Part shown: piece after piece, positions 7,430 through 24,625 of the stretch
Layout of the letters: each line of letters opens with the position of its first letter
Position numbering within the stretch: position 1 is the stretch's first letter
From: Promethearchaeota archaeon Loki_b32
GTDB taxonomy: Archaea; Asgardarchaeota; Lokiarchaeia; Sigyniarchaeales; SOKP01
Length of the DNA stretch: 64,000 nt
Assembly (NCBI GenBank): GCA_005223125.1
Contig: NJBH01000005.1
Location: forward strand, 6,509-70,508
Direction: 5' to 3'
The notes under the pieces: model-generated
Database searches by the model: none
What the model saw: the letters and a program-made list of their open reading frames with translations, nothing else
What the model was told of the DNA's origin: nothing
Position numbers and translations under genes: made by a program

Positions 7430-9493
7430 TTATGCATTTATTTCAGGAGCTTTCTTAATAAAAATCTCATTTATTAATGATTCAAATATAGGATGATCTT
7501 TTATTTCAATTACTCGATTAGCCTTTAAATATTTGTTCATTGTATCCCGTATAATATCAGAATTTTGTATGCTTTCTACAAATTGTGTTAATTTTTGGTT
7601 AGCTAGATATGTTTGCCCTTTGAATATATAGCAAATTGAGAAAGAACTAACTGATTGCATTAGTATCGTAAATTCACCAAATTTAGCACGATCAAGCCTT
7701 TTGGCAAAAATCTCTCCGCTAAAAGAATCAAATGCTGTTAAAAATCCACTTATAAGATCATTTTTGAAAGACCATTCTTTTGTAAAGGGATTAGAGAATA
7801 ACGGGAATCCACCTCCTCCAATAATTAAAAGCAATATTGGTGTTTCATGAGTTAATTCAGGTGGTTCTATAGCGCGTTTTCCTTGCATTCTATCTATAAC
7901 TCCTTTAAAAGATGCTAATTTTATGCGTTCTGACATGGGTGCATTTTCTTTTTCTAGATTTTTCCATGTACTTAACTGCTGCAATAATGTATCATGTTCG
8001 ACTGAGATTCTAATAGCTAACAAGTTAAGACCATGGAGTTCAGCTATTTGTTGAGATTGTGTTATTAGTTGTTCTGCTTCCTTGATCTGCATTTGAATTA
8101 GAGCCAGTTTTGCTTGTAATAATTTAATTTCTGCTAACCATAAATAAGCATTTTGTTTTTCTGCTATCTTGGAAATTTGAGCGATTAATGGATTTAATTC
8201 ATCCAAAACTTCTATGTTATTAGTAAAAGATAATTCTTCCAAAAAAATTTCACATAAGTTCACAAGCGCTAAGAGATTTAATTGAGGAGTGCTAATTCCT
8301 TCCCCAATTATTTGCTTTAGTAATAATTCTGCTTCTGTTCGATTCCGAATCCGATTACTCTGTTTCAAGACAAGTGCTTTTGTTATTGAATGCACTTGGC
8401 TGAATACTTTACTCTCATACTGATTGGTGAATTGCTCTAACCGCGTCAAATATAATTGTGCTTGTTCAAGAGAATTATTATCTAAACTAGTTAAAATTAA
8501 ATAAAAAAGTGAAGATGACATTCCGTAAACTGAATTAAATTTTTCTGAAAGTGCCATGCTATGTTGAAGATATTCTATAGCTTTATCAAAATCTCCTTTC
8601 ATCCTATAAGTAGCACCGATTCCCATTAAATTTTCTAGGAACTCATTATTATAACCTTCCTTTTCAGCAAGTTTAACTGCTCGGTTATAATAACTTAAAG
8701 TTCTGTCTAATTCACCCATTTCTTTATAGATGGCACCTAGAAGATGCAATATGCTGAATTTTGTAACAATACCAATTTCGTCAATATTTAATCCTTGTCT
8801 ACCAGTTTTTAACGCTCTATCAAAATCCCCTTTCATATAGTGACAAAGTCCAATTAAATTAAGACTTGCTCCAATACCTATTTGATTGTTTAATTCTTTT
8901 TGTATTACCAAACTTTTCATAGCATAACCTAAAGCTTTATCAGGTTCACTCTTAAAAATGTAAATATCCCCCATTTGACAATACATAAGTGCTATTTCGA
9001 GTTTTTCTTTTAAATCTTCTTCTAATGTTAACCATTCTTGAGATAGCTCAATCGCCTTACTGTGTTCAGTTGCATAATGACAAACAATGGATTTTATAAA
9101 TAAAATATCAGCTTTTTGTTTTGAAAATTCTGAGGATGAATCTTTTAAAATAGAATTAATCAATCTTTCAGCTTCTGAAATATATTCTAATGCTTGGTCT
9201 AGTTTTCCGTAAAATATAATATACGCTTTTATAACTAGAGAATCAATTACTTTAGGAATAAGTCCTATTTTTTGACTTAATTGGTAAGCCTTTTCTCCGA
9301 CTTCTACAGCCTTTTTATATTGTTCTTTATAGCAATATATTTTACTTTTTAAAATCAATATTGATAACTGTTCTTTAGTCTCGTTTATTTTCTTCTTCTC
9401 GAGATTTGTAACTATCTTAAGCGCGTCCTCAAATTTAGCTTGATACATTATTTGTTCCGCGTAGGTTAACTCTTTAAGTATTGAATCGGACAA
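7430..9493 (-). CDS. TPR-repeat protein with C-terminal longin-like domain (paralog of 18934..20889)
   Basis: 687 aa, TTG start. There are many TPR-like repeats (..GDFDKAIEYLQHSMAL.., ..GELDRTLSYYNRAVKLAE..). The C-terminal ~140 aa (ILLLIIGGGGFPLFSNPF..DLISGFLTAFDSFSGEIF..FTILMQSVSSFSICYIFKG..) have a bbabbba pattern. Confidence 0.75.
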   Translation of the reverse strand: MSDSILKELTYAEQIMYQAKFEDALKIVTNLEKKKINETKEQLSILILKSKIYCYKEQYKKAVEVGEKAYQLSQKIGLIPKVIDSLVIKAYIIFYGKLDQALEYISEAERLINSILKDSSSEFSKQKADILFIKSIVCHYATEHSKAIELSQEWLTLEEDLKEKLEIALMYCQMGDIYIFKSEPDKALGYAMKSLVIQKELNNQIGIGASLNLIGLCHYMKGDFDRALKTGRQGLNIDEIGIVTKFSILHLLGAIYKEMGELDRTLSYYNRAVKLAEKEGYNNEFLENLMGIGATYRMKGDFDKAIEYLQHSMALSEKFNSVYGMSSSLFYLILTSLDNNSLEQAQLYLTRLEQFTNQYESKVFSQVHSITKALVLKQSNRIRNRTEAELLLKQIIGEGISTPQLNLLALVNLCEIFLEELSFTNNIEVLDELNPLIAQISKIAEKQNAYLWLAEIKLLQAKLALIQMQIKEAEQLITQSQQIAELHGLNLLAIRISVEHDTLLQQLSTWKNLEKENAPMSERIKLASFKGVIDRMQGKRAIEPPELTHETPILLLIIGGGGFPLFSNPFTKEWSFKNDLISGFLTAFDSFSGEIFAKRLDRAKFGEFTILMQSVSSFSICYIFKGQTYLANQKLTQFVESIQNSDIIRDTMNKYLKANRVIEIKDHPIFESLINEIFIKKAPEINA

Positions 9494-9659
9494 GTGTATT
9501 GATCTCTTTTATGGATTTAAAAAACTCAGAATCTTAATATTTATGAAAAAAAAGAAGGATATTAAGCTTAAAAGATTTTGTAATAACCTTGTTTTAATTT
9601 ACTTATTTTGATACTCTTATTGAAGGATAGCAATTAACTAGATTATCTATTTAATCTAT

Positions 9660-11909
9660 TCAAAACTCCAGAGGATTAATAGGTCTAAAAATAAAATCTT
9701 TAACTACACTAAAAGCATAAATTAAATCAGCTGATTTATTTGTAAAAGAATTTCTTTTATACTCACAATATTTTTCAGATGTGAGGGGATAAGGAAAAAA
9801 ACATTTTACACAACTTTCTTTTTCTTGACACAGATTACAAATTCTTTTTCCTTCTCTTTCTTTATTCAAGTTTTCGAGTTTTTGTATAATATCTGAGATT
9901 GAAATTCCAACTTTTCCTATGGAATCTGAAAACCAGCATATTCGAATCGAATCATCATTTTCTATAATAGCTGTTTCTAAAGTTTGACAATTAGCTTGAT
10001 TCTTCGTCCATCTACACAATTGTTGAAATTGTGGCAATGGATTGCTATCTAAAAGGTGATTATACATATTCTCTTTTTTAGAAATCTTAATTAGGATATT
10101 GTAAAGTGCTGTTGTGTCAATTGGGGTACGATCTATACTTATTAAATATTGCATATTATTAGCTCCTTTTTCATAATCCTCAAAAACTAAATGAGTGTCT
10201 TTTGATTTTATTGGTAATCCAAATTCTTCATTATATAATGCCATTCTTCCTGCTTTTAAAATTAATGTATCAGTTGAATTATCCCAAAAATAGGATTCAT
10301 AAAATGAAGTTGGTGAAAATTCATTATAAAGAGTTATTTCATTCTTTTCATGGAATTTAAGATATTTGAATTTATCAGAATATATATGAATAATAGCACC
10401 ATTTATCGCTTGATTTTTTTGTATCCATTTTACTATTGAAGGTTTTAAAGTATTAGAATTAATTATTATATTTTCAAAAAATGGTTTCCGTTCTGAACGT
10501 TTCGGAGTTAATGATAAAATTTTAAGAACATCATAGTCAATTACCTCATCATTTTGTATACCCGCACATTTTGGTGCTAATTTAATTTTGTATACATCAA
10601 AGGGAAAGTCATTCTTGAGAAGAATTTTATTTTTATCTCCCATAGTTTTAATATTGTAGCCAAATCTTTTATAATTTTGATAAATTGGTGTACCTCTAAA
10701 AATATGGAAAATATTATGAGTATAGAAGTCAATTTCCAATTGATTTATAAAATCAATAGTTTTTTGAGCATCTTGAATTGATTCACCTGGTAACCCAATC
10801 ATTATACTTACAAAGACCTTATTAAATCCAATTTTTTTAGCATATGATGTCATATGTTTTAGTTTTTCGATAAATTCAATTTCCTTTTCAAGTTGTTCCG
10901 AATCCATATTTTCTGGAGGGTTAACTTTTCCAATGGCTCTTAAAATTCTCGGGACAGCGCTTTCTAAAGAAAATCCAATTGAAACAAAACCAGCTTCTTT
11001 CATAAGATACAATAAGTCTTCAGTAATCTTGTCACAACGAGTTGTACATGTTAGTGGAATTTTTATATCATTCTCAATGATAGATTCACATATTTTAAAT
11101 GCCCTGGTTGGTACGATAGTAAAACTATCATCATTAATAGGAACAGGTCCCGAAAACTTTTTATTTTCATTAATATAAACTAATTCTTCTATTACTCTTT
11201 CTATTGAGTGAAAAAAAATATTTTTTTTACTTAATACAGCACAATTACAGTAAGTACAGTTTTGATTACAACCTCTAGCCGTGATTATTCCTGTAGGAAA
11301 AGCTCTTGATATAGGTATAATTTTTGAAAGGTAGGGAGATGGAAACTTATCTATATAATTTTTAATTGATTTATTTGAAAGAAGGTCATTCCTTTCTGGA
11401 TTTATGATTATTTTATTTTCTTTCCGAAAAGTAATACCTTTAATACTAAATAAATCTACCTTTTTTAACTTAAAATTTGTTTTAGATAAATTCGAGATCA
11501 ATTCAAGGAGTGTTTCTTCTCCTTCCCTTCTAACACAGATATCAACACTGCTAACACCCTCCAAGACTTCTTTTGATTGTACACTAGGAGTAGGACCCCC
11601 AAAAATTATTATGATGTCGGAATTATAAGCTTTTAATCCATTACTTATTAAAGCACATTGCATAAAATTAGTTTCATAAACAGTAAATCCAACAATATGA
11701 GGATGGAAATTTGCAATTTCCTTGACACACTCTTTCACATTACAAGATTCATCTGAAATAAATTGTTCAGCATTAAAACCTTGGCCTCTTAAATAAGTAA
11801 TAACATACGCAGAGCCTAAGTGATGTTTAAAATTAGTGAAATATAAATCACCTCCAGAAGGAAAAACCATCAAAACATCTAAGAAAATATTTTTCATACG
11901 TTTAATCAC
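9660..11909 (-). CDS. B12-binding-domain radical SAM protein with Cys-rich C-terminal extension
   Basis: 749 aa. N-terminal Rossmann-like B12-binding region (HIVGFTVYE..IIIIFGGPTPS), radical-SAM CxxxCxxC (CNQNCTYC) and a C-terminal CNLCQEKESCVKC cluster. Confidence 0.8.
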   Translation of the reverse strand: MIKRMKNIFLDVLMVFPSGGDLYFTNFKHHLGSAYVITYLRGQGFNAEQFISDESCNVKECVKEIANFHPHIVGFTVYETNFMQCALISNGLKAYNSDIIIIFGGPTPSVQSKEVLEGVSSVDICVRREGEETLLELISNLSKTNFKLKKVDLFSIKGITFRKENKIIINPERNDLLSNKSIKNYIDKFPSPYLSKIIPISRAFPTGIITARGCNQNCTYCNCAVLSKKNIFFHSIERVIEELVYINENKKFSGPVPINDDSFTIVPTRAFKICESIIENDIKIPLTCTTRCDKITEDLLYLMKEAGFVSIGFSLESAVPRILRAIGKVNPPENMDSEQLEKEIEFIEKLKHMTSYAKKIGFNKVFVSIMIGLPGESIQDAQKTIDFINQLEIDFYTHNIFHIFRGTPIYQNYKRFGYNIKTMGDKNKILLKNDFPFDVYKIKLAPKCAGIQNDEVIDYDVLKILSLTPKRSERKPFFENIIINSNTLKPSIVKWIQKNQAINGAIIHIYSDKFKYLKFHEKNEITLYNEFSPTSFYESYFWDNSTDTLILKAGRMALYNEEFGLPIKSKDTHLVFEDYEKGANNMQYLISIDRTPIDTTALYNILIKISKKENMYNHLLDSNPLPQFQQLCRWTKNQANCQTLETAIIENDDSIRICWFSDSIGKVGISISDIIQKLENLNKEREGKRICNLCQEKESCVKCFFPYPLTSEKYCEYKRNSFTNKSADLIYAFSVVKDFIFRPINPLEF

Positions 11910-12051
11910 TATTATAATACTACTTCTCAGACATACTTAACCTTATCATCAAATTTACACTTAAACTATCTTTTTAAATCTCCTATTTTAAACAATGTTC
12001 TATAAAAGTAAAATTGAAAAAAAAGAAAAATTATTAAATTTAATTGACGTT

Positions 12052-12330
12052 TTAGCCAACGGTTTCCCAAACACACATCAAACTAAATATCTTATCAATA
12101 TTTTCATTATTTATTTCATTTGCATCAACTAGATCCTGGAGTCGTCCTTGTATACAATCCCGTAAAGCTGTTCCAGTGTTACCTTCCCTTATACATTCTT
12201 GAATTCCTTCAGCAATCCTTCGTCCAATACCTGGACCATATCTTTCAATAAGACGATGTCTTAAGGTTTGATTTAAATCAATTCTCACATTATCTGGCAT
12301 TCTATACACCTCAAAATTTTTGAATTTCAC
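12052..12330 (-). CDS. Hypothetical small protein
   Basis: 92-aa ORF immediately upstream of, and co-oriented with, the radical SAM gene. No motif recognised. Confidence 0.4.
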   Translation of the reverse strand: MKFKNFEVYRMPDNVRIDLNQTLRHRLIERYGPGIGRRIAEGIQECIREGNTGTALRDCIQGRLQDLVDANEINNENIDKIFSLMCVWETVG

Positions 12331-12579
12331 AATATAATTATTTTTTTATGTAACATATCGGATTTTGTTGTTTTGTTACATTATAGTAAAATATTTTTAT
12401 ATGCTTAAAAATATTGTATTTTTGTTTGTCAGATTTCAGTAAAACTACAAAAAAAAAATAATTTCTTTAAAATTTTAGTAAACTGCATGGTTCCTAAAGT
12501 GAATCTTATTCTTCACTTTTTCTACAGGAACAGTTTCTTCTAGAAATTTAGCGTTATATTTAGCCTTCTTAATTAATTT

Positions 12580-12729
12580 TCATAAAACTTTTTTTTCTGG
12601 TTTCTCCTGTTGTGCTATCTCTAGTTCCTCAACTTGCTCCTCTTCCATGGGGAGTTCTTCTAAAATTATAAATTCTTCCAATTCAATGCCTTGTTCATGT
12701 TCTTTTTCCCTTTCTAAAAATTGTACCAT
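12580..12729 (-). CDS. Possible small acidic protein (not in ORF track, 49 aa)
   Basis: ATG at 12729. Translation is MVQFLEREKEHEQGIELEEFIILEELPMEEEQVEELEIAQQEKPEKKVL. A TGA stop is followed by 34 more in-frame sense codons. Confidence 0.2.
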   Translation of the reverse strand: MVQFLEREKEHEQGIELEEFIILEELPMEEEQVEELEIAQQEKPEKKVL

Positions 12730-12761
12730 TTCTTATCGCTCTCCCTTTTTATTATTTTTTT

Positions 12762-12962
12762 TTATAAATCCTTTAAACCAAATCCTAAATTTAATGGATG
12801 CATTGAATAATAGCTAAATGTCTGCTTCCATCTTTTCAATTCTCTTTCCTTTTCTATTGAGTCATACTCATCTTTAACAAATGGAATTTGACTGCATTCT
12901 TTTTTCGGTTGTTCTTGTTTTGAATCTTCTTCTTTATAAAATACATAAAAAAATTCTCTCAA
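12762..12962 (-). CDS. Possible small protein
   Basis: 66-aa ORF from the track, co-oriented with the neighbouring small ORFs. No motif. Confidence 0.25.
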   Translation of the reverse strand: MREFFYVFYKEEDSKQEQPKKECSQIPFVKDEYDSIEKERELKRWKQTFSYYSMHPLNLGFGLKDL

Positions 12963-13201
12963 ACCAAGTGCTATATCATTCTTACTCTCTGTCAGATTTA
13001 ATCACCTCTTTTTTCTTTATTTAAACTCCAAATAATTATTAGAATAAGATTACATTTTTAGTTTATCCTATAAAATTGTAATTAGACTCTTAGATAAAAT
13101 TTGGACTTGAAGGGAAAAAAAGACTAACCACTAAAAATATAAGATCTTGAAAATGATATTAGAAACTGGATTCTTTATTTAAAATTTTGCTTAATCAGTT
13201 C

Positions 13202-13759
13202 CTATAATTCTGCTGATAATTCTTTATATTTATGGTACAACTTATCTATTATTTCATTAAAAGCTTCAATAACTCCTTGTTCTGTTTTTGCTGAGGTTAT
13301 ATAATACCCAAGGAAATTTCGTTCATTAACTACTCCTGGAATAATTGAATTATCCAAGCTATTCTCGTCCACTAAATCCACTTTATTTGCAAATAAAACT
13401 ACAGGAATATTGCCACAAAATTGTATGATATTATCATGCCAATTTGCTATATGATTGAAACTCTCCTCACCAAGGTTATTTTCCTCCAAACTATATACAA
13501 TAATAGCACCTCTACTATTCCTAAAAAATGAGGGACGTGCAAAACTGAACTCATCCTGGCCAGCTATGTCCCAGAATAGTAGTCTAATATCATTTCCATC
13601 AATTTCTTTATCATAAACCGAGAATTGGGCTCCTATTGTCTTAATATAATCCTTTTGAAATGATCCCTTTGTAAATTTTTGAATTAGGGACGTTTTTCCT
13701 ACTCTTCCATCCCCTACAATCGTAATTTTAAAATTAAATTTTAACCTTGAGTTCTTCAT
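13202..13759 (-). CDS. Rab/Ras-like small GTPase (paralog of 18261..18815)
   Basis: G1 GDGRVGKTS, TIGAQF, G3 WDIAGQDEF, G4 NKVD, G5 TSAK. 121/185 identical to the paralog by hand alignment. Confidence 0.92.
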   Translation of the reverse strand: MKNSRLKFNFKITIVGDGRVGKTSLIQKFTKGSFQKDYIKTIGAQFSVYDKEIDGNDIRLLFWDIAGQDEFSFARPSFFRNSRGAIIVYSLEENNLGEESFNHIANWHDNIIQFCGNIPVVLFANKVDLVDENSLDNSIIPGVVNERNFLGYYITSAKTEQGVIEAFNEIIDKLYHKYKELSAEL

Positions 13760-14193
13760 TTTACTGTCCTATAGAAATAACACTGGCGAATTGTGTCTAA
13801 ATTAAGATTAGTTTTATATAAATATAAAAGTATGTTTTATTGAAAAAAATAAGAAGAATTGTCAAGATCATTAAAAATATCCAGAGAAAAAGATCGATTT
13901 CTAACAAACTCGAAAAAGATTTTATAATGAAATAGAGAGCCCGTATTGTCATTTTTTCTTAACAACCGAGCTCTCCCTTAATATTTCGCCATCTCTCCCG
14001 TTTTTACCTACGCCCTCTACACTTGAAAATATACTTTCAAAATAGAAAGTATTATAATTTTATACATCACTATTACGTATATAGTTTAGATTGATGAAGT
14101 CTAGATGGAGTCTTGGATCAACAATGGAGCATAAAGTATAAATAGATTTTCACCCATTATTCAATTAAGAGTATTGAACTAGGAGTATTAATT

Positions 14194-16116
14194 GTGGTTA
14201 CTACATGTAATTATCCCCCTGAAGAGATAATAAAACCTATTTTTGAAAGGCCTAACTACGAATTTATTATCCTATGGATTTTAAATAATAATGAAGTATG
14301 CACTTGGGCAAACTTGAAAGTAAAAATTAAACATTCAACATTATCAATCTATTTAAGCCGACTTAAAGATAAAGAATATATTGAAAAAAGTTCATTTAAT
14401 CATTATATTATCACCTCTAAAGGTAAGGACAGATATTATGAACTGTCTTTAGCGAGTAAAAAAAAGCGAAAATTAAGTTATCCTCCTAAAGCTATACGTA
14501 GAAGGAGGAATTATGATCACTGGATTCTTTGGATGGTGTATAATAATAATTATTGCAAATGGTCCGATTTTCTTGAACCACCTCTTTCAATCAATCAATC
14601 TTCTTTATCTAAAAACCTAAATTCATTACAAGATAAAGAATTTGTAAGAAAAGAAGAAAAAGAATATAGAATTACTCGATTAGGAAAAACTGAATATTCA
14701 AATATGCTAAGACTATATGATTTAGACAGACAATCAATCTTAGAGGAAGAAGGTAAACGGATTAAAGAAATTACTAAAAGAACAATTAGCTTCTTTGAAA
14801 AATACAAAATAAAAGATAATGATATTAAATTTCGATTTTTAAATAATAAGTTAAAGCTTCCATATGAAAAAGTTAAATCTACTTTAGATAATGAAGAAGA
14901 ATATGATAAAATTTTACTTTACCTCTCCATAAATCATCCTAATCATTTTCCTAAGTATATATCCCCCGAAGAATGTTCTAAAAAGTACAACATCAATTTG
15001 GTTAAACTTAATTTTATTATTCTTCGAATCGTAGAAGAAAATATCTTTCCAATAAAATTTTTTAAATTAGAATCTGCTGATGGAAAAATTTTTTATTTTC
15101 AAGTGAATGAAAAATTAGAAAGAATGCTAAATGCTATTGTTGAGGATCACATTACAAAATTTTCATATTTGAACAATTTATATGAAGAAACACCTGGGGA
15201 AACATCGCCATTAACAATGGAAAGCACAGTTACAGCAATCTTGGATGAGATTTGCGATAACCTTTTCAATAATGGTTTAAAGGAATCATTAAGTGATTTT
15301 CTTCCAGTATATATTAATTACTTAGCTTATAAAATCGAAAGGGAGAGAAAATTATTAGATACTTATGATAAATTAGAGGGATTAATTTGGCAAGAGATTC
15401 AAATAAAATTTTTTGATTTAGTTGAAGTTGAATATCCAACTGAAACAAAAGAAGCAAACAAAGCTATTCGAGAAATTGATAAAGCTATTAAATTGAATCC
15501 TGACAAGCTTGATTTATACTATTCAAAAAGCAAAATTCTAATTGATCTAGGAGAATACAAAGATGTTTTATCGATTTTAGATAAAATGCTTATAGATTTC
15601 CCTCAAGAAGAGAAAAATATCCAAATAAAAAAAGCATATGTTCAAAAAGAAATGAAAAATATTGAAAAGGGACTAGAAATTATTGCCTCATTACTTAAAA
15701 AATATCCTGACAACAATGATCTTCTTAATTATAAAGCTTGTTGGTTACAGTATCTTAATCGTAAAGAGGAATCTTTAGAAATTAGTCAAAAACTTATAGA
15801 GAATGTACCTGATAATGCTACTTATCATGATACATACGGTGAAATTTTAATGTATTTTAATGAACATGAACATGCCATTGAGGAATTTCTGAAAGCAATT
15901 GAAATAAACAGCGATGATTGGTACGTATACCAAACTTATATAAAATTAGGGATTTGTTATAAGGAACTAGAAAATTATGACTTGGCAACTGAATATCTTC
16001 AAAAAGGAATAGAATCTACAGAAGAGTCATCAGGGGATAACGAGACAAAAAATAAATGGATTGCAATTGCTAATCTATTCGTTGCAGAGATAGAGCAACT
16101 AGAAATAGAATTATGA
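14194..16116 (+). CDS. Double winged-helix (wHTH x2) + C-terminal TPR protein (paralog of 22709..24625)
   Basis: 640 aa, GTG start. Two tandem modules each begin [NS]YPP[EK] and carry wHTH-like segments (IILWILNNNEVCTWANL..; HWILWMVYNNNYCKWSDF..LSINQSSLSKNLNSLQDKEFVRK). The C-terminal part has TPRs (..DWYVYQTYIKLGICYKELENYDLATEYLQKGI). Confidence 0.75.
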   Translation: MVTTCNYPPEEIIKPIFERPNYEFIILWILNNNEVCTWANLKVKIKHSTLSIYLSRLKDKEYIEKSSFNHYIITSKGKDRYYELSLASKKKRKLSYPPKAIRRRRNYDHWILWMVYNNNYCKWSDFLEPPLSINQSSLSKNLNSLQDKEFVRKEEKEYRITRLGKTEYSNMLRLYDLDRQSILEEEGKRIKEITKRTISFFEKYKIKDNDIKFRFLNNKLKLPYEKVKSTLDNEEEYDKILLYLSINHPNHFPKYISPEECSKKYNINLVKLNFIILRIVEENIFPIKFFKLESADGKIFYFQVNEKLERMLNAIVEDHITKFSYLNNLYEETPGETSPLTMESTVTAILDEICDNLFNNGLKESLSDFLPVYINYLAYKIERERKLLDTYDKLEGLIWQEIQIKFFDLVEVEYPTETKEANKAIREIDKAIKLNPDKLDLYYSKSKILIDLGEYKDVLSILDKMLIDFPQEEKNIQIKKAYVQKEMKNIEKGLEIIASLLKKYPDNNDLLNYKACWLQYLNRKEESLEISQKLIENVPDNATYHDTYGEILMYFNEHEHAIEEFLKAIEINSDDWYVYQTYIKLGICYKELENYDLATEYLQKGIESTEESSGDNETKNKWIAIANLFVAEIEQLEIEL

Positions 16117-16138: not shown

Positions 16139-17929
16139 TTAATTATCTTCAACTAATTTTTCTAATTCATCAATTTTATCGGAGAGATATTGAATTCCCT
16201 TTTCCCAGAAGGAAGGGTCATTTAAATTAATACCAATTTCAGCCAGCAATTCTTCGGGAGAAAGTGAACTCCCTAGAGATAGTAATTTTAGATACTTAGG
16301 AACGAATTCCTCTTTCTGTTCAAGATACATTTGGTAGATTGAAATCACCAAAAGGTTTGACATGTTATATGCATAAACGTAGAATGGAACATTTATAAAA
16401 TGTGGAACTACAAAAATATAATTAGCATATTCTTCTCTTAAGTTAGTCATAGAATTCCCAAACATTAATTCCATTTCTTTTATAAAAGCATCTTTAATTT
16501 CTTCTGTTGTTGGTAATTTTTCTTCCATCAATCCATGAATAGCTTTTTCAAATCTATAAAAGGCATTTTGTCTATGTGAAGTTCCAAACTTAGATTCAAT
16601 AAAATTACTAAGTAATGAAATCTTTTCATCCTTTGACAAATCAGTATTCATCAAATAATCAGAGATTAAGATTTCATTGAATACTGATGCAATTTCAGCA
16701 ACCACTAGGGAGGTTTCTATATTTACAAAGTTTTGATTTCTTTGAATATAATAGGCATGGAATGCATGACCAAGTTCATGAGCTAAAGCTCTTACTGAAT
16801 CAATGGTATCTACAAAATTAACAAAAACGAAGCCATAATGTTTTTGTTTTCCATGTGCACAAAAAGCACCTCTATTTTTTCCTTTTCTTGGAGTTGCATC
16901 GATATGATTAAATTCAACCATTTTCTCTATAATGTCTTTAAACTCAGGAGAAAATTTTTCATCAGATTCCTTTATTAATTCTAAAGCTTCTTGGTAGGAA
17001 TATTTTCTTGTTATTTGCCCAACTGGTGCGTACATATCTGACATATGTAATTCTGTAAGGTTTAGGAGCTTTTTCTTTAAATTATAATATTTTTCAACTA
17101 AATGATAACTTTCTGTAGTAACCTTTCCACATATCTCAACACTCTCATCACTTACTTCATTTTCAAGATTTCTTCTTGATATCGGTTTTTTGAAATTTCT
17201 TTTGGAGCATTCTAGATCCCAATCTCTTAGGATATTATTGTAAATATGGGTGAAAATCATCTCATTTTTCTTGTATTCTGCCATCATTGTTTGTAGCGCT
17301 TTGTAGCGAAGGTCTCTATTCTCCTGATACATATAAGCAAAAAGTTCTGCTTCAGTTAATTTCTTCATTTCGCCATCTACTTCAAAATCATAAGTGAAAT
17401 TGCTTTTGTATTCACTATAGAGTTTGATAAAGCCCTTTACACCAGTCATATCCTTCATTAAGATAATCTGTTCTTCCTTTTCTGAAAGTTGATTTAATTT
17501 TTTCTTCCTATTGAATTTAAGAGCATGAGTATAGTGTTCTAATTCCGAAGCTTTTATTAATTCTTCAAATTTATTATCAGAGATTTTGTTTAACTCCAAA
17601 TTAAAGAATAAAAGCTTTTGTTGAATTTTTACTTTAAACTCCTCAATTTTTGAAAAGAATGCTTTTACATCATCATCAAGATTATTTGTTCTTAATAATA
17701 ATTCTGCAAACGATTCAAAGTAGAATGTTTTTTCAGACACTTTTTCATACTCTTTAAACCATTCTAGAAGTTGTTTGGGTGTGAGGGAAGGATCCTCTAA
17801 CTTACCCTTAACATTTTGATAAAATTCTTCTGCTAATTTTTCTATATCCTTGATATCTGTTTCAATTAATGGATCATTGATATCTATATAGAAATCCCTT
17901 AAGTCCCATTTAATGATTTCTTGCATCAT
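16139..17929 (-). CDS. pepF: Oligoendopeptidase F (M3B metallopeptidase)
   Basis: 596 aa. Zinc motif HELGHAFH in the expected context, and length typical of the M3B family. Confidence 0.88.
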   Translation of the reverse strand: MMQEIIKWDLRDFYIDINDPLIETDIKDIEKLAEEFYQNVKGKLEDPSLTPKQLLEWFKEYEKVSEKTFYFESFAELLLRTNNLDDDVKAFFSKIEEFKVKIQQKLLFFNLELNKISDNKFEELIKASELEHYTHALKFNRKKKLNQLSEKEEQIILMKDMTGVKGFIKLYSEYKSNFTYDFEVDGEMKKLTEAELFAYMYQENRDLRYKALQTMMAEYKKNEMIFTHIYNNILRDWDLECSKRNFKKPISRRNLENEVSDESVEICGKVTTESYHLVEKYYNLKKKLLNLTELHMSDMYAPVGQITRKYSYQEALELIKESDEKFSPEFKDIIEKMVEFNHIDATPRKGKNRGAFCAHGKQKHYGFVFVNFVDTIDSVRALAHELGHAFHAYYIQRNQNFVNIETSLVVAEIASVFNEILISDYLMNTDLSKDEKISLLSNFIESKFGTSHRQNAFYRFEKAIHGLMEEKLPTTEEIKDAFIKEMELMFGNSMTNLREEYANYIFVVPHFINVPFYVYAYNMSNLLVISIYQMYLEQKEEFVPKYLKLLSLGSSLSPEELLAEIGINLNDPSFWEKGIQYLSDKIDELEKLVEDN

Positions 17930-17964: not shown

Positions 17965-18180
17965 CTAGGATTTATCATTGAATTTGAAATTTTTAGTCTT
18001 CAAGCATTTTTTGTTATTAATCTTAAATACAAATTGAAGAAGTTCATTGGAAAGTAATTTTTGAGGAGAAAGATCGTCTCTTTTTTCTAATTCCAAAACG
18101 ATTTGGAAGGCTTCCTTAATTCTGCCTTCTTCCATGAGTTGTCTTGCTTGAATCAATTCTTTAATTTCAGAATGAGACAT
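17965..18180 (-). pseudogene. 5' stub of a third TPR/longin-family gene
   Basis: The first ~48 aa (MSHSEIKELIQARQLMEEGRIKEAFQIVLELEKRDDLSPQKLL) match the N-termini of 7430..9493 (MSDSILKELTYAEQIMYQAKFEDALKIVTNLEKKK) and 18934..20889 (MSHSELNQITRAEELFDAGKLDEALEIL). Similarity is then lost and the ORF stops at 71 aa. Confidence 0.55.
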
Positions 18181-18260: not shown

Positions 18261-18815
18261 CTATAATTCTGAAGATAATGCTTTATATTTATAATATAAT
18301 TTTTCAATAATTGCATTAAATGCTTCTATTACTCCCTGTCCACTTTTTGCGGAAGTAATATAGTATCCGAGAAAATTATATTCTTTGACATATTTTTGAA
18401 TTTCAAGTTCATTTAAATTATTTTCTTTCACCAAATCAACTTTATTGGCAAACAAAACTACAGGAATATCGCCACAATACTTTTTTAATTCATTATACCA
18501 ATTTTTTATATGTAATAAGCTGTCTTTTCCTAAATCATTTGCTTCAAGGCTACATACAATAATGCACGCTCTACTTTCTTTATAAAATAAAGGATGTAGA
18601 AAATTAAAATCATCTTGACCTGCAATATCCCAAAATATTAAATTAATTACATCCCCATTAATTTCTTTATCATATCTTGAGAATTGGGCACCTATCGTCT
18701 TAACATAATCTTTTTCAAAAGTTCCTATCGTAAATTTTTTTATTAAAGATGTTTTGCCGACCCCTCCATCTCCTATTACGGATATCTTAAATCCAAATTC
18801 CTTAGAATTAGTCAT
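18261..18815 (-). CDS. Rab/Ras-like small GTPase
   Basis: G1 GDGGVGKTS, TIGAQF, G3 WDIAGQDDF, G4 NKVD, G5 TSAK. Lies 118 nt downstream of the TPR/longin gene on the same strand. Confidence 0.92.
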   Translation of the reverse strand: MTNSKEFGFKISVIGDGGVGKTSLIKKFTIGTFEKDYVKTIGAQFSRYDKEINGDVINLIFWDIAGQDDFNFLHPLFYKESRACIIVCSLEANDLGKDSLLHIKNWYNELKKYCGDIPVVLFANKVDLVKENNLNELEIQKYVKEYNFLGYYITSAKSGQGVIEAFNAIIEKLYYKYKALSSEL

Positions 18816-18933: not shown

Positions 18934-20889
18934 TCATAATTCACTAAATACCATACTCTTAGTGATAAAAATTTCTGTTATTAAGGATTCAAGTAAGGGG
19001 ATATCTTTTAATTTAATAGACTGGCTTACTTGAAAAGATTTAAGTAAATTTTGCCAAATATCCTCTTCTTTTTGGATGTGTTCCATAAAATAATTTATCT
19101 TCTGGTGAGCATAATAAGAATCACCTTTAAATATGTAAGAAATAAAAAAAGGTGGAATAGATTTCATAAGAAGAGTATATTCACCAAAGGTTGCTCGGTC
19201 TAGTCCTTCAGAGAACATTTCCCTAATAAAATAATCAATAGTGGTTAAAAAACCGCCAAAAAGATGTGATTCAAGAGATTTTTCCTTTACAAAAGAGTGG
19301 GAGAATAAAGCTGAACCTCCTTCAGTTATTATAAAAATTGAGAAAGGTTCCTCATCTGAAAACTCTGGAGTTTCAATCATTCGTTTTTTTACTATATTCT
19401 CCATTTGCTCGTTCAAACCAGCAAGCTTCCAACGTTCAGATAAAGGTGCTTCTGATTCTTTTAACTTCTCCCACATAGTTATTTGTCTAAGTAGTTCATC
19501 ATGTTCATGTGAAATTTTCATTGCTAATCGTTTAATTCCGTATTTTTCAGCTATCTTTTGGGCTTGAGTTAAAAATCGTCTGGCTGCTTTCATATCAAAA
19601 TTTATTAAAGCTAATTTCGCCTGTAATATGAAAATTCTACAAAAATGAATATATGAATGTGTTTTTTCAGCTATAGTTAATAATTTAGCAATATAGTGAT
19701 TTAATTCATCAAGTACTTCATTACTATTAGTAAAACGATACTCTGAAAGAAGCAATTCACAAAGATGAACAGTTGCTTGTATTGCAAATTGACCCCATAT
19801 AGTTTCTGTGTCTATTATTTTTTTGAATATTTTTTCAGCTTTTGCTTTATCGCGAATTCGCGAACTCCTTTTTAGCATTAAAGCTGTACATAATTTGTAG
19901 AGTAAAACAATTGTTCCATCTTTTTTTTGATTATACAAATTTTCTAGTCGATTGTAATATTTCTGAGCAAGTTCATTATCACCTATTTCAAGAGCCACTT
20001 CAACTAAATTAGAAAGAGGAAAATCTAATGCCAAAGATAGCTTTTCATGGTATAATAAGCATTCTTCGAAATATTCCAAAGCAAGGTTGAAATTACTAAG
20101 TTGATAATAGTTTCCACCTATATTATTAAGTACCAATGCAAAAAAATAATTGTTTTTGATTGCTCTAAATATCGCCAAACTTTTCATGTTATATTTCAAG
20201 CCAATATCTATCTCGCCTAGAGTTGAATGTAACACCCCTAAATACAATTGACCGAAAGCAATCCAGAAATGATTAAATTTAATTTGTTTTGCTATCGATA
20301 ATGCTTTCTTGGCATACTCCCCACCAAGTTCATAGTAACTTTTTCCTTGATACATAAGTCGTGCCTTTAAAAAAGTAGCCCAAACAATTTCAAATGTATT
20401 ACCAAGCTTATTGTGTGAATCTAAGACCCAATTTAAACAATTTTCTGCTAAATCTTGATTATTTAACTCCAGATTAATCCATCCTTTTAAAACTCTTAGA
20501 CGAATTTTTCTCTGAAAAAAAACACTTTTAGATATATCAGAAATAAGTCCTAATAACACTTCAGCAATTTCAATTTTTTGATAAGCTTCCTTAAATTTAT
20601 CACTTAGACCTAATCCGATGATAATAAAAAATAACCCATCAAACGATTGAAGATTATCATTAAGATCTTGACCTTCTTTAAATAATTGTTCACCAAACTC
20701 AATAAGTTCATCGCATTTGTTCTGGTGCATTAGAATTAAGCCCTTAAGAAGCTGAAAATAAACTTTTTGCTGAGAATTAAGCCCTTCAAATTGTACTCTA
20801 TCGTTTAATATCTCAAGAGCCTCATCAAGTTTACCCGCATCAAAAAGTTCTTCCGCTCTTGTTATTTGATTTAGCTCTGAATGAGACAT
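18934..20889 (-). CDS. TPR-repeat protein with C-terminal longin-like domain
   Basis: The track ORF runs to 20964. The internal Met at 20889 (MSHSELNQ..) matches the paralog N-termini, so it is the preferred start. C-terminal block: FSIFIITEGGSALFSHSF..HLFGGFLTTIDYFIREMF..YTLLMKSIPPFFISYIFKG. Confidence 0.75.
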   Translation of the reverse strand: MSHSELNQITRAEELFDAGKLDEALEILNDRVQFEGLNSQQKVYFQLLKGLILMHQNKCDELIEFGEQLFKEGQDLNDNLQSFDGLFFIIIGLGLSDKFKEAYQKIEIAEVLLGLISDISKSVFFQRKIRLRVLKGWINLELNNQDLAENCLNWVLDSHNKLGNTFEIVWATFLKARLMYQGKSYYELGGEYAKKALSIAKQIKFNHFWIAFGQLYLGVLHSTLGEIDIGLKYNMKSLAIFRAIKNNYFFALVLNNIGGNYYQLSNFNLALEYFEECLLYHEKLSLALDFPLSNLVEVALEIGDNELAQKYYNRLENLYNQKKDGTIVLLYKLCTALMLKRSSRIRDKAKAEKIFKKIIDTETIWGQFAIQATVHLCELLLSEYRFTNSNEVLDELNHYIAKLLTIAEKTHSYIHFCRIFILQAKLALINFDMKAARRFLTQAQKIAEKYGIKRLAMKISHEHDELLRQITMWEKLKESEAPLSERWKLAGLNEQMENIVKKRMIETPEFSDEEPFSIFIITEGGSALFSHSFVKEKSLESHLFGGFLTTIDYFIREMFSEGLDRATFGEYTLLMKSIPPFFISYIFKGDSYYAHQKINYFMEHIQKEEDIWQNLLKSFQVSQSIKLKDIPLLESLITEIFITKSMVFSEL

Positions 20890-21066
20890 AATTTTAATTA
20901 ATTTGGATGCAACCTTATGAATAAATAAGCTAATTATAATTTTAAATCTAGCGTTTAAGACCATTAAAAAAAAGATTTTCCATTTCTTAATTATTGAGTC
21001 GATGAATTAGAAAGGGACTAAAAAAGAAAAAAAAAAATTAATTAGAAATTTTTTCATTTATTGCGT

Positions 21067-21461
21067 TTAGCTTCTCTGTTTGATATAAGAGACAATACCA
21101 AGCGATAACATTGTCCACATTAAGATTTGATCGATGATCAGTTGAGATATAGTTTGAGGGAGTAATGTTGGGCCATATATAACTGCCACTACAAGTTCAA
21201 CGAGTATTACCGGTATAAACCAACTATACAAAAACATATACGTCAATTTAATCTCTTCCCATTCCTTTTTGCGAAGCATTACAATTGCAAAAATAGAACC
21301 GAGAAACAAAGTCCCCCAAAGGCTCTTGGATGTAATGGATTAGTCCAACCCTCAGTATTTAAGATTATATCCCATAGAAATACGAGCATGACTCCAAAAA
21401 GAAAAGGAATAATAGCAACCACTATAAGGGAGATTTTTGTAATTTTTTTAATTTCGGTCAT
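21067..21461 (-). pseudogene. Small multi-pass membrane protein split by a frameshift at a C5/G5 run
   Basis: ORFs 21279..21461 and 21067..21309 overlap. One extra G in the run at 21313-21317 would read ..PRAFGGTLFLGSIFAIVMLRKKEW.. as one ~130-aa hydrophobic protein. Confidence 0.45.
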
Positions 21462-21475
21462 TTTTTTTTATTCAA

Positions 21476-21513
21476 CTCTTTTCTTTAAAAATTTGATTTT
21501 ATCATCTTTATGA
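21476..21513 (-). promoter_or_regulatory. Copy A of a shared 38-nt upstream element containing a TATA-like AAATTTTTAAA
   Basis: 35/38 identical to 22516-22553. It lies 15-52 nt upstream of the start of the membrane-protein gene at 21461. Confidence 0.4.
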
Positions 21514-21828
21514 AAATAGAAAAAAATGGATAGATAAAAGAGTAACAAGTTTCAGTAAGAGGGTCTTCTTCAGCAATCCATAACAAAACATGATCTCCTG
21601 TATTATCATCAGGATAGGTTGATACAGATGACATGTGACTCCAGGACATTTATCATGGATTCGATTCGTATTATAACATTGTGAATTTTCCTTGCATTTT
21701 CAAATTATTATAGATTCCTTTATATTATAATCTAAATGATTGTAGATTAGGAACTGTTTTTTAAAAAAAAAAAAAAAGATTTTAGAATATATTTCTTATC
21801 TGTTACGATTGATTTAGTGCTATGGGAC

Positions 21829-22515
21829 TCATATTTCTATGGATTTTGTCAAATAGGATATCGGACCAACTGGCAATACCATTGGACCGATCGGCGTTTC
21901 AACTTCCCATATAACTGCAGCAAGGGCCCATCCTCCTTCTGGCAAAATAAAGACTGGAGGATATGTTCCAGGGGGATATGTTCCAGGATCTTCTAAACAA
22001 TATTCACCTGTAAAGCTTAGAAACATTAAAATCTGTGCTGATTCGTATTTACCTTCAGTATTTGGCATGGTTATTGGAAGCAAATTTCGAAAAAATACCA
22101 CGATATCGCTATCAGTAGTTTTAACCAATCCCTCACCCATGACCCACCAAACGTTAATAAACCAGACATTAAAGATTGGGCAATAAAAATAATAATCGGT
22201 CTGTAGAAGTAATCCATCTTTAAGCATTCCTTTCATCGCATACACTTTTTCACCTGATTCATCATAGATTTTTTGATGGAAAACTGCTTGCACCGATGGG
22301 AGCTCACCGCCTCCACCGAATTCAATCTTCCCTAGGATAAAATTAGTAGCTCCAGGGAGATCTAGATCATCTCCTTTTGCCATGATTAAGAGGCGATTAG
22401 AATCAGCAGCCATCACCGGTGTAACAATTGCTATGATACCTATTAAAAATGATACCGCGATCAGTGCCTTAGTCACTTTTGATTTCTTTTTCACTATCAT
22501 ATTCTTTTTTATCAC
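21829..22515 (-). CDS. Secreted or membrane-anchored hypothetical protein
   Basis: 228 aa. N-terminal Lys-rich region plus hydrophobic helix ending VMAADS (signal-peptide-like). Contains the PGTYPPGTYPP repeat. The start may be the ATG at 22500. Confidence 0.6.
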   Translation of the reverse strand: MIKKNMIVKKKSKVTKALIAVSFLIGIIAIVTPVMAADSNRLLIMAKGDDLDLPGATNFILGKIEFGGGGELPSVQAVFHQKIYDESGEKVYAMKGMLKDGLLLQTDYYFYCPIFNVWFINVWWVMGEGLVKTTDSDIVVFFRNLLPITMPNTEGKYESAQILMFLSFTGEYCLEDPGTYPPGTYPPVFILPEGGWALAAVIWEVETPIGPMVLPVGPISYLTKSIEI

Positions 22516-22553
22516 ATCTTTTTTTTAAAAATTTGGTTTTATCATCTTTATGA
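22516..22553 (-). promoter_or_regulatory. Copy B of the shared 38-nt upstream element
   Basis: Lies immediately upstream of the 21829..22515 start, or 16 nt upstream if the ATG at 22500 is used. It is inside the divergent intergenic region shared with wHTH/TPR gene 22709. Confidence 0.4.
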
Positions 22554-22708
22554 TGATTAATTAAAGGTTGAGATATAGTTACCTTTATAATTGAGCTTCC
22601 GATAGTTCCGTGATAGTTTCGATTCTTTATGGAAGTTCTATGAAATAGATATAAATAGAAAAGAAACCGATCTATAATTTAGAAAATAAAATTTAGTTTT
22701 TTCAAATT

Positions 22709-24625
22709 ATGGGAATCATAAATTATCCTCCAGAAAAGATCTATAGCCCTTCCAAGTTGAAAAGGCCGGACTATGACCATATTATTCTCTGGATGTTGAA
22801 TAATAATGATTATTGTAAGTGGGCTGACTTTCGTCAAGAAGCGATTGAAATTCCTACAGGTACATTATCTAGGCATTTAGATACATTAAAACGTAAGAGC
22901 TTTATAGAAAATTTTACTAGAGGGCATTACAGAATTACTTCAGAGGGAAAAAAGAAATTTCATGAACTATCAAGTGCGAAGAAAAAGACACGTAACCTAA
23001 ATTATCCTCCTAAAATCATCTTAAAAAGTGGAAGAGAATACGCTCACTGGATTCTTTGGATGGTTTACAATAATAACTATTGCAAAAGGTCTGACTTCCT
23101 TGAAGATCCATTATCTATAAATCAATCTTCATTGTCAAAGAATTTGAGTTTGTTAATAGAAAGGGGATTTATAAAAAAAGAGGATGGGAAATATGTAATT
23201 ACCCTAGCAGGTAAATCAGAATATTCAAGGATGCTTCAAAATTATGATTTAGATAGACAAACTATTTTAGAAGAGGAAGGTAAACGAATTGAAGAGATTA
23301 CTAAAAAAACTATTAAATTTTTCGAGAGATTTAGAATAGAAGAGAAAGATATTCAATTTAGATTTCTCAACAATATATTAAAATTAGATTATGAAAAAGT
23401 AAAACCATTATTAAAAGATGAGGAGCCTTTTCATAAAATCTTACTTTTTCTTTCAATTAATCATCCGGATCAATATCCAAGCTTTATTTCCTCTGAAGAT
23501 TTTTCCAAAATCTATAAAATTAAGAAAACTACGCTTGACTATTATATTGATGAGATTTCAGAAGGCAAAATATATCCATTACGATTTTTTAAGTTAACAC
23601 ACCCCTCAGGTGAGCTATATTACTTTCAATCAGATGGAAGACTAGAAAGTATACTTCGGGTAATTACAGAGAATCAAATCAATAAAGTCAGTTATTTGAA
23701 TAAACTTTTTTCAAAGCCAACAGCAAAAGTGCTAACAATAGATATGAAATCCATTATAAATGATATCACAGATAAGAGTTGTGAATTCTTGTTTAATAAG
23801 GATTTAAACGCGTCATTAAGAGAATTTTTACCAGAATATATTAAATATCTAGCTTATAAAATTGAGACTAAAAAGAAATTAAAAGAAACTTATGATAAAT
23901 TAGAGGGAATTATCTGGCAAAACATAACAGATATTGTTCAATCACAAATCTCTGAAAATTTAGAAAATCAATATGAAGAACAAATAGAAGGGATTGATAA
24001 AGAAATTGAATTAAACCCAGAAAATCTTAACTTATATTATTCGAAGATTAGAATTCTGATTTATTTTAACCAATACCAAGAAACAATAAAATTCTTAGAT
24101 GAAATGTTTGAAATTTTTCCTGAAAGTGAAAAAGATATTAAAATATTAGAAGCAGCTGTTTTTAGAAGAATGCAAAAATTTAAAGAGGGATTCGAAATTA
24201 TCGAGTCTTTAATTGAAAAATATCCTGAAGACAATGATCTTCTTAGTTATAAAGCCTATTGGCTACAATTTTTAGATAAAAAAGAAGAAGCAATAGAAAT
24301 AATTCAAAAACTCACAAAAGATGAACCCGATAATGGAATTTATCATGACACTTTTGGTGAAGTTTTAATGTATTTTGAAGATTATGAAGAAGCGGCTAAG
24401 AAATTTGTAAAGTCAATGGTTTTAGGAGCCCATGAATGGTATATTTTCCAGACTTATATCAAATTAGGAATTTGTTATAAAGCAATTGGGAATCTTGATT
24501 TAGCAGTCGAAAACCTCAAGAAAGGGATAGAACTAACAAAGAAAAATTTAATCGATACTGAAACAAAACATAAATGGCTTTCGATAGCTAATCTTTTTCT
24601 TGCTGAAATAGAACAATTTCTCTAA
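22709..24625 (+). CDS. Double winged-helix (wHTH x2) + C-terminal TPR protein
   Basis: 638 aa, collinear with 14194..16116 (NYPPE, HWILWMVYNNNYCK, PLSINQSSLSKNL, YDLDRQTILEEEGKRIEEITK, WYIFQTYIKLGICYK). Confidence 0.75.
   Translation: MGIINYPPEKIYSPSKLKRPDYDHIILWMLNNNDYCKWADFRQEAIEIPTGTLSRHLDTLKRKSFIENFTRGHYRITSEGKKKFHELSSAKKKTRNLNYPPKIILKSGREYAHWILWMVYNNNYCKRSDFLEDPLSINQSSLSKNLSLLIERGFIKKEDGKYVITLAGKSEYSRMLQNYDLDRQTILEEEGKRIEEITKKTIKFFERFRIEEKDIQFRFLNNILKLDYEKVKPLLKDEEPFHKILLFLSINHPDQYPSFISSEDFSKIYKIKKTTLDYYIDEISEGKIYPLRFFKLTHPSGELYYFQSDGRLESILRVITENQINKVSYLNKLFSKPTAKVLTIDMKSIINDITDKSCEFLFNKDLNASLREFLPEYIKYLAYKIETKKKLKETYDKLEGIIWQNITDIVQSQISENLENQYEEQIEGIDKEIELNPENLNLYYSKIRILIYFNQYQETIKFLDEMFEIFPESEKDIKILEAAVFRRMQKFKEGFEIIESLIEKYPEDNDLLSYKAYWLQFLDKKEEAIEIIQKLTKDEPDNGIYHDTFGEVLMYFEDYEEAAKKFVKSMVLGAHEWYIFQTYIKLGICYKAIGNLDLAVENLKKGIELTKKNLIDTETKHKWLSIANLFLAEIEQFL

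Follow-up and report, generated by a model that had tools for sequence, protein, structure and literature searches.

A recurrent Asgard archaeal gene cassette joining a Rab-like GTPase to a winged-helix/TPR protein and TPR-longin proteins, with a candidate operator

What would a Rab-like small GTPase be doing next to a protein built like a transcription factor? The question is raised by a stretch of contig NJBH01000005.1 from Promethearchaeota archaeon Loki_b32 (positions 6,509 to 70,508; "the window" below means this whole stretch of 64 kb, with a G+C content of ~30% across it), where three gene families each occur twice within 17 kb. We call them G, the Rab-like GTPase; H, a protein with winged helix-turn-helix (wHTH) and tetratricopeptide repeat (TPR) domains; and L, a TPR protein that ends in a longin-like domain. 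An earlier note on this DNA, made from the letters alone, had proposed a self-contained GTPase switch. Here, we describe the domain content of the three families, the longin-type fold of the L domain, the linkage of the genes and a conserved palindrome, all established computationally. Our tentative reading, to which we give something close to an even chance, is that the genes form a conserved and repeatedly duplicated Asgard signalling cassette, in which an operator-binding H protein is coupled to a G switch with longin-domain regulators.

The six open reading frames (ORFs) assigned to the two copies were confirmed, coordinates included. In the first copy, H1 (14194-16116, plus strand, 640 aa) and G1 (13202-13759, minus strand, 185 aa) diverge over a 434 bp spacer, and L1 (7430-9493, minus strand, 687 aa) lies 3.7 kb beyond G1 on the same strand, with small ORFs and a gene for a B12-binding radical S-adenosylmethionine (SAM) protein between them. 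The second copy has L2 (18934-20889, minus strand) 118 bp upstream of G2 (18261-18815, minus strand, 184 aa) on the same strand, while H2 (22709-24625, plus strand, 638 aa) lies 3.9 kb from G2 and diverges from a co-directional series made up of a 228-aa ORF, an 80-aa ORF, L2 and G2. The same three families are thus present twice within 17 kb, as had been claimed, but the gene order differs between the copies. The hand count of 121/185 identical residues between G1 and G2 agrees with pairwise BLASTP (E 7e-89), and the end-to-end alignments proposed for the other two pairs are borne out over the full length, at 33% identity for L1 and L2 (E 4e-102) and 53% for H1 and H2 (E 0). The C-terminal block singled out as conserved in L1 and L2 is indeed their best-conserved part, with 45% identity in the domain alignment A1.

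Could the two copies be a recent tandem duplication? We rejected this possibility. Identity between the paralogues is 33-65%, and closer orthologues of each copy exist in other organisms; the copies are old paralogues and the duplication is ancient. H1 is 100% identical to the hypothetical protein CEE43_04400 of Promethearchaeota archaeon Loki_b32 and 94% identical to proteins of other metagenome-assembled genomes (MAGs), and H2 is 81-82% identical to H genes at two of the loci compared below, L082 and L040. Metagenome contig L082 carries the same two-cassette layout as the window. Several proteins that are 80-86% identical to H1 (P0174, P0180, P0192 and others) carry the NCBI labels Hodarchaeota, Thorarchaeota or Hermodarchaeota; such high identity across supposed phyla suggests inconsistent taxonomy labels on the MAGs rather than a wide phyletic spread.

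The G proteins are the most readily classified members of the set. Pfam assigns them to Ras/Roc, with Ras scores of 135 and 129 bits for G1 and G2 against a cut-off of 21.6 (E 1.7e-39 for G1), and a TIGR00231 match was also found. The G1-G5 motifs are intact in both (GDGRVGKTS, KTIG with the switch I Thr, WDIAGQD, NKVD and TSAK), the catalytic Gln included. The nearest PDB sequences are Rab23 (1e-33), Rab21, a Thorarchaeota Rab and Ypt1, with Ran scoring similarly in what was a sequence search and not a phylogeny, and close homologues carry the NCBI name "Rab family GTPase". A C-terminal Cys of the kind found in prenylation motifs (CC, CxC, CaaX) occurs in none of 115 full-length members of the subfamily, G1 included. 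This agrees with the Rabs of MK-D1, which have no C-terminal Cys (Tran et al. 2024, PMC10933270). From these sequence features, G is best read as a non-lipidated, cytosolic Rab-like nucleotide switch. About half of the members end in LSxEL; the idea that the C-terminus is a tail docking onto TPRs was considered, and we make no such claim, given that only about half of the subfamily has the motif. The window holds two more Ras-like GTPase genes, which brings the number to four in 64 kb: one at 4232-4765 (plus strand), with orthologues at a fixed position in loci syntenic with the first copy, and one at 31289-32434 (plus strand), with an N-terminal extension of ~150 aa.

The L proteins match TPR_12 and TPR_MalT in Pfam and contain no NTPase domain. 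Neither Pfam, even with hits up to E 10 allowed, nor NCBIfam gives a match for their C-terminal ~135 aa. A profile built from alignment A1 matches residues 554-686 of the L1 stop-to-stop ORF (E 3e-65), which places the domain at about 7451-7849 in L1 and, in L2, at about 18958-19356. Run against 1.84 billion 50%-identity cluster representatives, the profile detects 1101 proteins at E<=1e-3, 751 of them at E<=1e-10; because nearly all of these have a length of 600-700 aa and carry the domain at their C-terminal end, the combination of TPRs and this domain constitutes a large family. AlphaFold2 (AF2) models the domain with a mean predicted local distance difference test (pLDDT) score of 79.6 and a predicted template modelling (pTM) score of 0.77. 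The elements, strands 4-12 and 16-22, helix 32-50, strands 55-58, 61-68 and 71-78, and helices 81-97, 99-111 and 121-132, follow the order b-b-a-b-b-b-a-a(-a), which is the longin topology. The PDB matches listed by Foldseek are all longin or roadblock proteins: AP2 sigma (E 2e-4, template modelling (TM) score 0.54-0.57), delta- and zeta-COP, LAMTOR subunits, Mon1-Ccz1, TRAPP Bet5/Trs23, CPLANE Fuzzy, Sec22b, Ykt6 and MglB. Since the predicted order of elements is that of longins and all of the listed matches are of the longin/roadblock kind, the guess of the earlier note that this domain is longin-like gains support at the level of the predicted fold, though not from any curated sequence family. 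Invariant features include a Gly in the b1-b2 loop, [LM]DRA..FG after helix 1, with its Arg, and YxFKG in strand 5; the b1-b2 loop often reads G-x-P (GGFP in L1, GGSA in L2). Elsewhere in the window, a 149-aa ORF without a Pfam match (48342-48791, plus strand) matches A1 weakly (hmmsearch 7.7e-4 among window ORFs; hhalign E 2.7e-4, probability 42%) and may be a stand-alone longin-like protein.

The H proteins have two Pfam wHTH domains (matches to HTH_45, HTH_34, HVO_A0261_N and MarR) followed by C-terminal TPRs, again with no NTPase domain. The wHTH matches exceed the family thresholds, with HTH_45 at 36.4 bits in H1 (cut-off 25.5) and HTH_34 at 35.5 bits in H2 (cut-off 27), and the middle region has no match in Pfam or NCBIfam. 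Residues 1-420 are conserved as a single unit across the family, whose members range from 640 to 990 aa and bear only the database names "hypothetical", "TPR" or "wHTH domain-containing" protein. An AF2 model of residues 1-420, computed from an alignment of database matches (pLDDT 72, pTM 0.41), shows a first wHTH (22-73), a second (107-160), a helix of 40 residues, a third wHTH-like unit at ~234-303 and more long helices. Foldseek returned only local matches for this model, to the DNA-binding wHTH domains of BpsR/MarR, Sso10a, PadR, MntR and HxlR.

Are the three families linked beyond this genome? The comparison drew on ~155 loci (1.84 Mb), labelled L001-L159 and the like; these labels denote loci and not L genes. 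One set of 75 loci was anchored on L genes in GTDB species genomes and mapped with local hidden Markov models; a second set of 78 metagenome loci (678 kb) was anchored on H; and a third consisted of three look-ups anchored on G on long contigs. All of the L-anchored loci come from Asgard MAGs except L066 (JANBVM010000030.1), which has two L-family genes in a bin labelled "Patescibacteria group bacterium" and is probably a misbinned contig.

Strongly scoring members of the G subfamily and H genes are found beside L in several orders (H< G> ... L>; L> G> H<; H< ... G> L>). In the L-anchored loci, shuffling of genes within each locus gives an expectation of 5.5 G-H adjacencies among 40, against 18 observed, and none of 2000 shuffles reached that number; G-L adjacency was seen in 15 of 40 against 8.9 expected, a value reached by 24 of 2000 shuffles. 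The earlier note had asked for such co-occurrence above chance outside the genome, and both pairs exhibit it. In the H-anchored set, the upstream sequence reached 2 kb or more for 54 H genes, of which 37 have a divergent G no further than 1.4 kb away (median spacer 328 bp); where both flanks were available, 27 of 33 H genes have a G on one side or the other. The G-anchored look-ups gave a divergent upstream H in all three cases and an L directly downstream of G in one. Adjacent L-G pairs were co-directional in 19 of 19 cases, with gaps of 3-172 bp and in both gene orders, and the L genes involved are spread over at least four L clades. The identities of paired genes also correlate (r 0.53 for G-H and 0.48 for G-L, neither reached in 1000 permutations), a signal to which co-inheritance alone contributes. 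The claim of a linked three-family set therefore stands in part: G and H are a tight core, and the idea of a uniform triad fails, as L, though it recurs, is facultative and belongs to a much larger paralogous family.

Perhaps this linkage reflects nothing more than inherited synteny within one archaeal class, with three functionally uncoupled families. Nearly all of the loci are labelled Promethearchaeota or related Asgard, as that explanation would have it, and genes for methylmalonyl-CoA mutase, thiolase and HpaB-like proteins are conserved in the same strings. Yet the adjacency persists in several gene orders and orientations, the cassette has been co-duplicated to two or three per locus, adjacent L and G genes always run in the same direction with short gaps between them, and several cassette genes share the cis element described below. 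Moreover, the adjacency is observed at 69%, whereas chance would give at most ~2%, reckoning with 74 small GTPases in MK-D1, whose genome has ~3,900 genes. We consider plain synteny improbable, and it is one of two minor rivals.

A conserved cis element lies in the region between the divergent G1 and H1 genes. Upstream regions of H genes can be aligned gap-free even between diverged loci, and share a fixed architecture: TATATAG, ~10 nt, an 18-bp palindrome, ~27 nt, AAGTATAAATAG, ~55 nt and the H start codon. In the window these elements are TATATAG at 14078-14084, a candidate TATA box for the leftward (G-side) transcript, which lies ~10 nt left of the palindrome here as in most H upstream regions; the imperfect palindrome GAAGTCTAGATGGAGTCT at 14096-14113, a candidate operator that scores 26.9 bits with a position weight matrix (PWM), the best value in the window; and TATAAATAG at 14137-14145 (plus strand), the probable H1 TATA box, ~55 nt before the start codon and kept in the aligned upstream regions. 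The palindrome has a GAACTCCAA|TTGGAGTTC-like consensus, and a third H clade has the variant GAACTT-N6-AAGTTC at the same position. The H2 promoter region (22589-22658, plus strand) contains AATTGAGCTTCC and ATGGAAGTTC, which resemble palindrome half-sites, and TATAAATAG; all are kept in the H2 orthologues of L082 and L040, though this site falls below the PWM threshold and is a weaker assignment.

How specific is the pattern? At 13 bits or more, the PWM finds 211 matches in the 1.84 Mb of loci and 31 in block-shuffled sequence. With the threshold raised to 17 bits, ~121 strand-hits are left, of which 94 fall in the 300 nt preceding an H gene; of the remaining 27, 16 are upstream of G genes or of genes of three further families, s, b and e, which are described below. 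A strict GAACT-N8-AGTTC motif was tried and discarded: it occurs in some H clades only (47% of H upstream regions at up to 2 mismatches, against 10% of background), it misses the window site GAAGTCTAGATGGAGTCT, and the PWM performs better. Judged from its sequence, the pattern has the signature of a shared operator, and we infer that the neighbouring wHTH protein H is its binder; the conserved palindrome in its own promoter is indirect support for H as a DNA binder. Within the AT-rich G1-H1 spacer, the leftward TATATAG is followed by a patch of noticeably higher G+C (13930-14030). Neither Rfam nor a tRNA scan gave a match anywhere in the window, this patch included, and there is no conserved ORF in the patch beyond the closest relative, L079.

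The main rival takes up exactly this evidence. H may be an ordinary one-component regulator of G and the small ORFs, with its TPRs sensing some other signal; G would then not act on H and would have its effectors elsewhere, and L would be an independent regulator or scaffold of G. Divergent regulator-target pairs with an operator between the promoters are a standard prokaryotic layout, and the palindrome and the divergence of G and H fit this explanation equally well. On the other hand, each G paralogue has stayed with its own H although the genes were duplicated and rearranged many times, and this extends to convergent H>G< pairs, which have no promoter in common. In addition, small GTPases in the GTP-bound form typically dock on TPR domains, as in the p67phox-Rac and SgmX-MglA pairs. 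We regard the one-component explanation as possible if somewhat doubtful.

In the signalling cassette that we favour, G and H, usually transcribed divergently from a compact promoter region, would be connected at two levels. At the level of DNA, H would most likely bind the 18-bp palindrome between the two TATA boxes through its winged-helix domains, and would thereby control its own gene, the G side and the other genes that bear a site, namely s, b and the membrane family e. At the level of protein, G would serve as a nucleotide switch, loaded or unloaded by longin-like domains acting as guanine nucleotide exchange factor (GEF) or GTPase-activating protein (GAP); these domains would be carried on a TPR scaffold in the window (L) or on a membrane anchor at other loci (e). 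Longin and roadblock proteins are general partners of small GTPases (PMC3747258), and it is on the strength of this general rule that the longin-like domains are proposed as platforms for G. By analogy with known TPR-GTPase pairs, G-GTP is proposed to signal to H: it would dock onto H, at the TPRs or the helices, and alter its DNA binding, so that the state of the GTPase would become a transcriptional output. The full version of this proposal, an Asgard Rab-like GTPase as a transcription switch in which GTP-bound G on H changes operator binding and TPR- or membrane-anchored longins set the nucleotide state, is a speculative one that we hold to be unlikely.

Several points weigh against the signalling cassette. 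The binding of H to the palindrome, the action of L or e on G and the action of G on H are all steps that we infer. The longin assignment is a model, with a TM score of ~0.55 to known longins and no match to a family at the sequence level, and the pTM of the H model is low, at 0.41. Units of the wHTH type can serve in protein-protein contacts, as in ESCRT-II and cullins, and another factor could be the binder of the palindrome. As the PWM was trained on H upstream regions, its matches there are partly circular, and only the matches at other genes are independent. With regard to linkage, the 678 kb of H-anchored sequence contains only 11 L genes, and the majority of L genes are either not close to G or belong to tandem arrays, many of them with no GTPase in the vicinity. 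Many of the loci are orthologous and from one lineage, such that the counts overstate the number of independent events, and unrelated metabolic genes are syntenic at these loci as well.

What of the other genes in the neighbourhood? Clustering of all ORFs of the loci uncovered recurrent families of small ORFs with conserved C-terminal motifs. Family s (67 members in 51 loci) is typically found beside G or between H and G, and is represented in the window by a 66-aa ORF downstream of G1 (12762-12962, minus strand); an acidic 49-aa ORF (12580-12729, minus strand), with homologues in L106, L107 and L131, resembles the N-terminal half of a second subtype of family s. Family b, absent from the window, consists of ORFs of ~65-85 aa with the motifs LGDLNPRYFEE and KFNFFSAF. 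Family d (15 members, sometimes duplicated) always lies directly upstream of R, the B12-binding radical SAM gene. Its window member is a Cys-containing ORF of 92 aa (12052-12330, minus strand) that has no Pfam match and has homologues in at least 9 loci. R itself (9660-11909, minus strand, 749 aa, assigned by Pfam) is of uncertain cassette membership; it lies directly upstream of L in 21 of 30 members of the L1 clade, and strings of the form d>R>L> recur. The arrangement of d and R (9660-12330, minus strand) resembles a precursor-maturase pair.

Such strings could point to a different kind of system altogether, a peptide-modification cluster like those for ribosomally synthesized and post-translationally modified peptides (RiPPs), in which s, b and d are precursors, radical SAM enzymes and an M3-family peptidase carry out the processing, H is the regulator, and G and L are accessory. 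The conserved C-terminal motifs of the small ORFs and the pairing of d with a B12-radical-SAM enzyme are in keeping with this idea, as are several further features. An M3-family oligoendopeptidase gene (16139-17929, minus strand) is convergent with H1, an arrangement (H>P<) that 21 loci share for genes of the H1 type. The 507-aa protein that follows G in L001 and L159, considered as a relative of L and rejected as one, is a second radical SAM match, though a weak one. Finally, L1 weakly matches the RiPP TPR protein HaaT at 33 bits. That match is far under the cut-off of 1125 bits, however, R occurs in only 27 of the ~155 loci, where it tracks one L clade, and most G-H pairs have no radical SAM gene at all; furthermore, we know of no GTPase among RiPP components. 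This second minor rival is the least probable of the explanations, and we give it very little weight.

The small ORFs also bear on the proposal that the switch is self-contained, which does not hold: the cassette includes these conserved ORFs, and other loci have membrane proteins with a related C-terminal domain. The latter form family e, multi-pass membrane proteins of ~363 aa that are absent from the window and have a C-terminal domain with [LM]DRA. The match of this domain to that of L is a weak profile match (hhalign E 1.3e-3, probability 19%), making e a candidate longin-like family. In ~14 metagenome loci (L115, L117-L120, L125, L126, L132, L135, L138, L143, L145, L153 and L155; for example L119:6953-9167), two tandem e genes are convergent with the G gene of a G-H pair; the palindrome is found upstream of several of these e genes.

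Other neighbours can be dealt with briefly. Between H2 and L2 (21067-22515, minus strand) are the hydrophobic 80-aa ORF and the 228-aa ORF with a hydrophobic N-terminus; neither has a Pfam match, and both have homologues in the two orthologous copy-2 loci, L082 and L040. A 71-aa ORF immediately downstream of G2 (17968-18180, minus strand) resembles the N-terminus of G-following proteins of ~506 aa (L084:4470-5987, L040:11513-13024), in which a TPR region of the MalT kind is combined with a weak match to a RING finger (zf-C3HC4_3, E 5e-4) at the C-terminus; the ORF looks like a truncated remnant. Directly downstream of H2, overlapping genes for a HEPN-domain protein (24717-25121, plus strand) and a minimal nucleotidyltransferase (MNT; NTP_transf_2, 25061-25405, plus strand) look like a HEPN/MNT toxin-antitoxin-type pair. 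PADLOC reported no defence system, only generic TPR and WH matches.

What would the cassette mean for the biology of these archaea? Dozens of Rab-, Rag- and Arf-like GTPases are found in an Asgard genome along with numerous longin and roadblock proteins, and these have been read as forerunners of eukaryotic membrane trafficking. The cassette gives a large Rab-like subfamily a candidate regulator (the TPR-longin protein), a candidate effector or regulator (the wHTH/TPR protein) and a candidate DNA target. If G does control a DNA-binding protein, at least one expanded Asgard "Rab" subfamily would be wired to gene regulation and not to membrane traffic, part of the "eukaryotic signature" expansion of GTPases would have to be reinterpreted as transcriptional signalling, and the cassette would be a prokaryotic system simple enough to serve as a model of GTPase switches regulated by longins.

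How much of this has been described before? Asgard Rab-, Rag- and Arf-like GTPases, longin and roadblock proteins and GTPase-longin fusions are all in the literature. The role of Asgard Rabs is described there as unknown, and the GTPase genes as a rule do not share operons with genes for roadblock or longin proteins, so that it is difficult to assign GAPs and GEFs to them (Tran et al. 2024, PMC10933270). The remark of the earlier note that no characterised system has this composition agrees with our literature search, in which we found no wHTH/TPR partner, no TPR-longin protein beside a Rab-like GTPase and no such palindrome; coverage was incomplete, and this is not proof of absence. New here are the 18-bp palindrome between divergent TATA boxes and the conserved small ORFs of the neighbourhood.

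Known systems resemble the cassette in parts. The polarity module MglA/MglB/SgmX of Myxococcus xanthus likewise combines a prokaryotic Ras-like GTPase with a regulator of the roadblock/longin fold, MglB, which is among the fold matches of L, and the TPR protein SgmX is an effector of the GTP form of MglA. However, G is closest to Rabs, and MglB is only a distant fold neighbour of the L domain. MglB stands alone, whereas the longin-like domain of L is fused to ~500 aa of TPRs at the C-terminus of a 650-690 aa protein, and the TPR partner H, unlike SgmX, has three wHTH units and an operator-like site, with no link of the cassette to motility.

Eukaryotic Rabs are controlled by longin-type GEFs (Mon1-Ccz1, TRAPP, DENN, and CPLANE Inturned-Fuzzy for Rab23) and GAPs (FLCN-FNIP, GATOR1, C9orf72-SMCR8), and the genomic pairing of a Rab-like GTPase with a longin-type domain is reminiscent of these. 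G differs from eukaryotic Rabs in having neither a prenylation signal nor a membrane-trafficking context, and L carries its longin-like domain singly, on a scaffold of TPRs, and shows no sign of the heterodimeric longin pairs. GAP-type longins (FLCN, NPRL2, SMCR8) have a GP motif before strand 2 and a neighbouring arginine finger (PMC12290439); the former is only loosely matched, by G-x-P in L1, and is absent from L2. In Asgard archaea, a conserved operon of a LAMTOR1-like Roadblock protein, a Rab-like GTPase and a DENN protein has been put forward as a GEF/GAP module (Liu et al., bioRxiv 10.1101/2020.10.19.343400). It too joins a Rab-like GTPase to a protein of the Roadblock/longin superfamily in an Asgard neighbourhood, but the cassette has TPR-longin and wHTH/TPR proteins, the latter a transcription-factor-like part, in place of DENN or LAMTOR1-like proteins.

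On the transcriptional side, the likeness to STAND regulators such as MalT and AfsR is functional only: an NTP switch, MalT-like TPRs (TPR_MalT in L1) and a DNA-binding domain. Those regulators are single polypeptides with a STAND NTPase, whereas in the cassette a Ras-superfamily protein on its own supplies the NTPase, and TPRs and HTH units are divided between two proteins. Regulators of the MarR, PadR and Sso10a types share wHTH units and a palindromic site between divergent promoters; the classical ones are dimers of ~150 aa, in contrast to the 640-990 aa of H with its three tandem wHTH-like units, ~200 aa of long helices and TPRs. Taken together, the cassette is best filed with systems of a small GTPase and a longin regulator, among which it is unusual in having a transcription-factor-like partner and a candidate operator.

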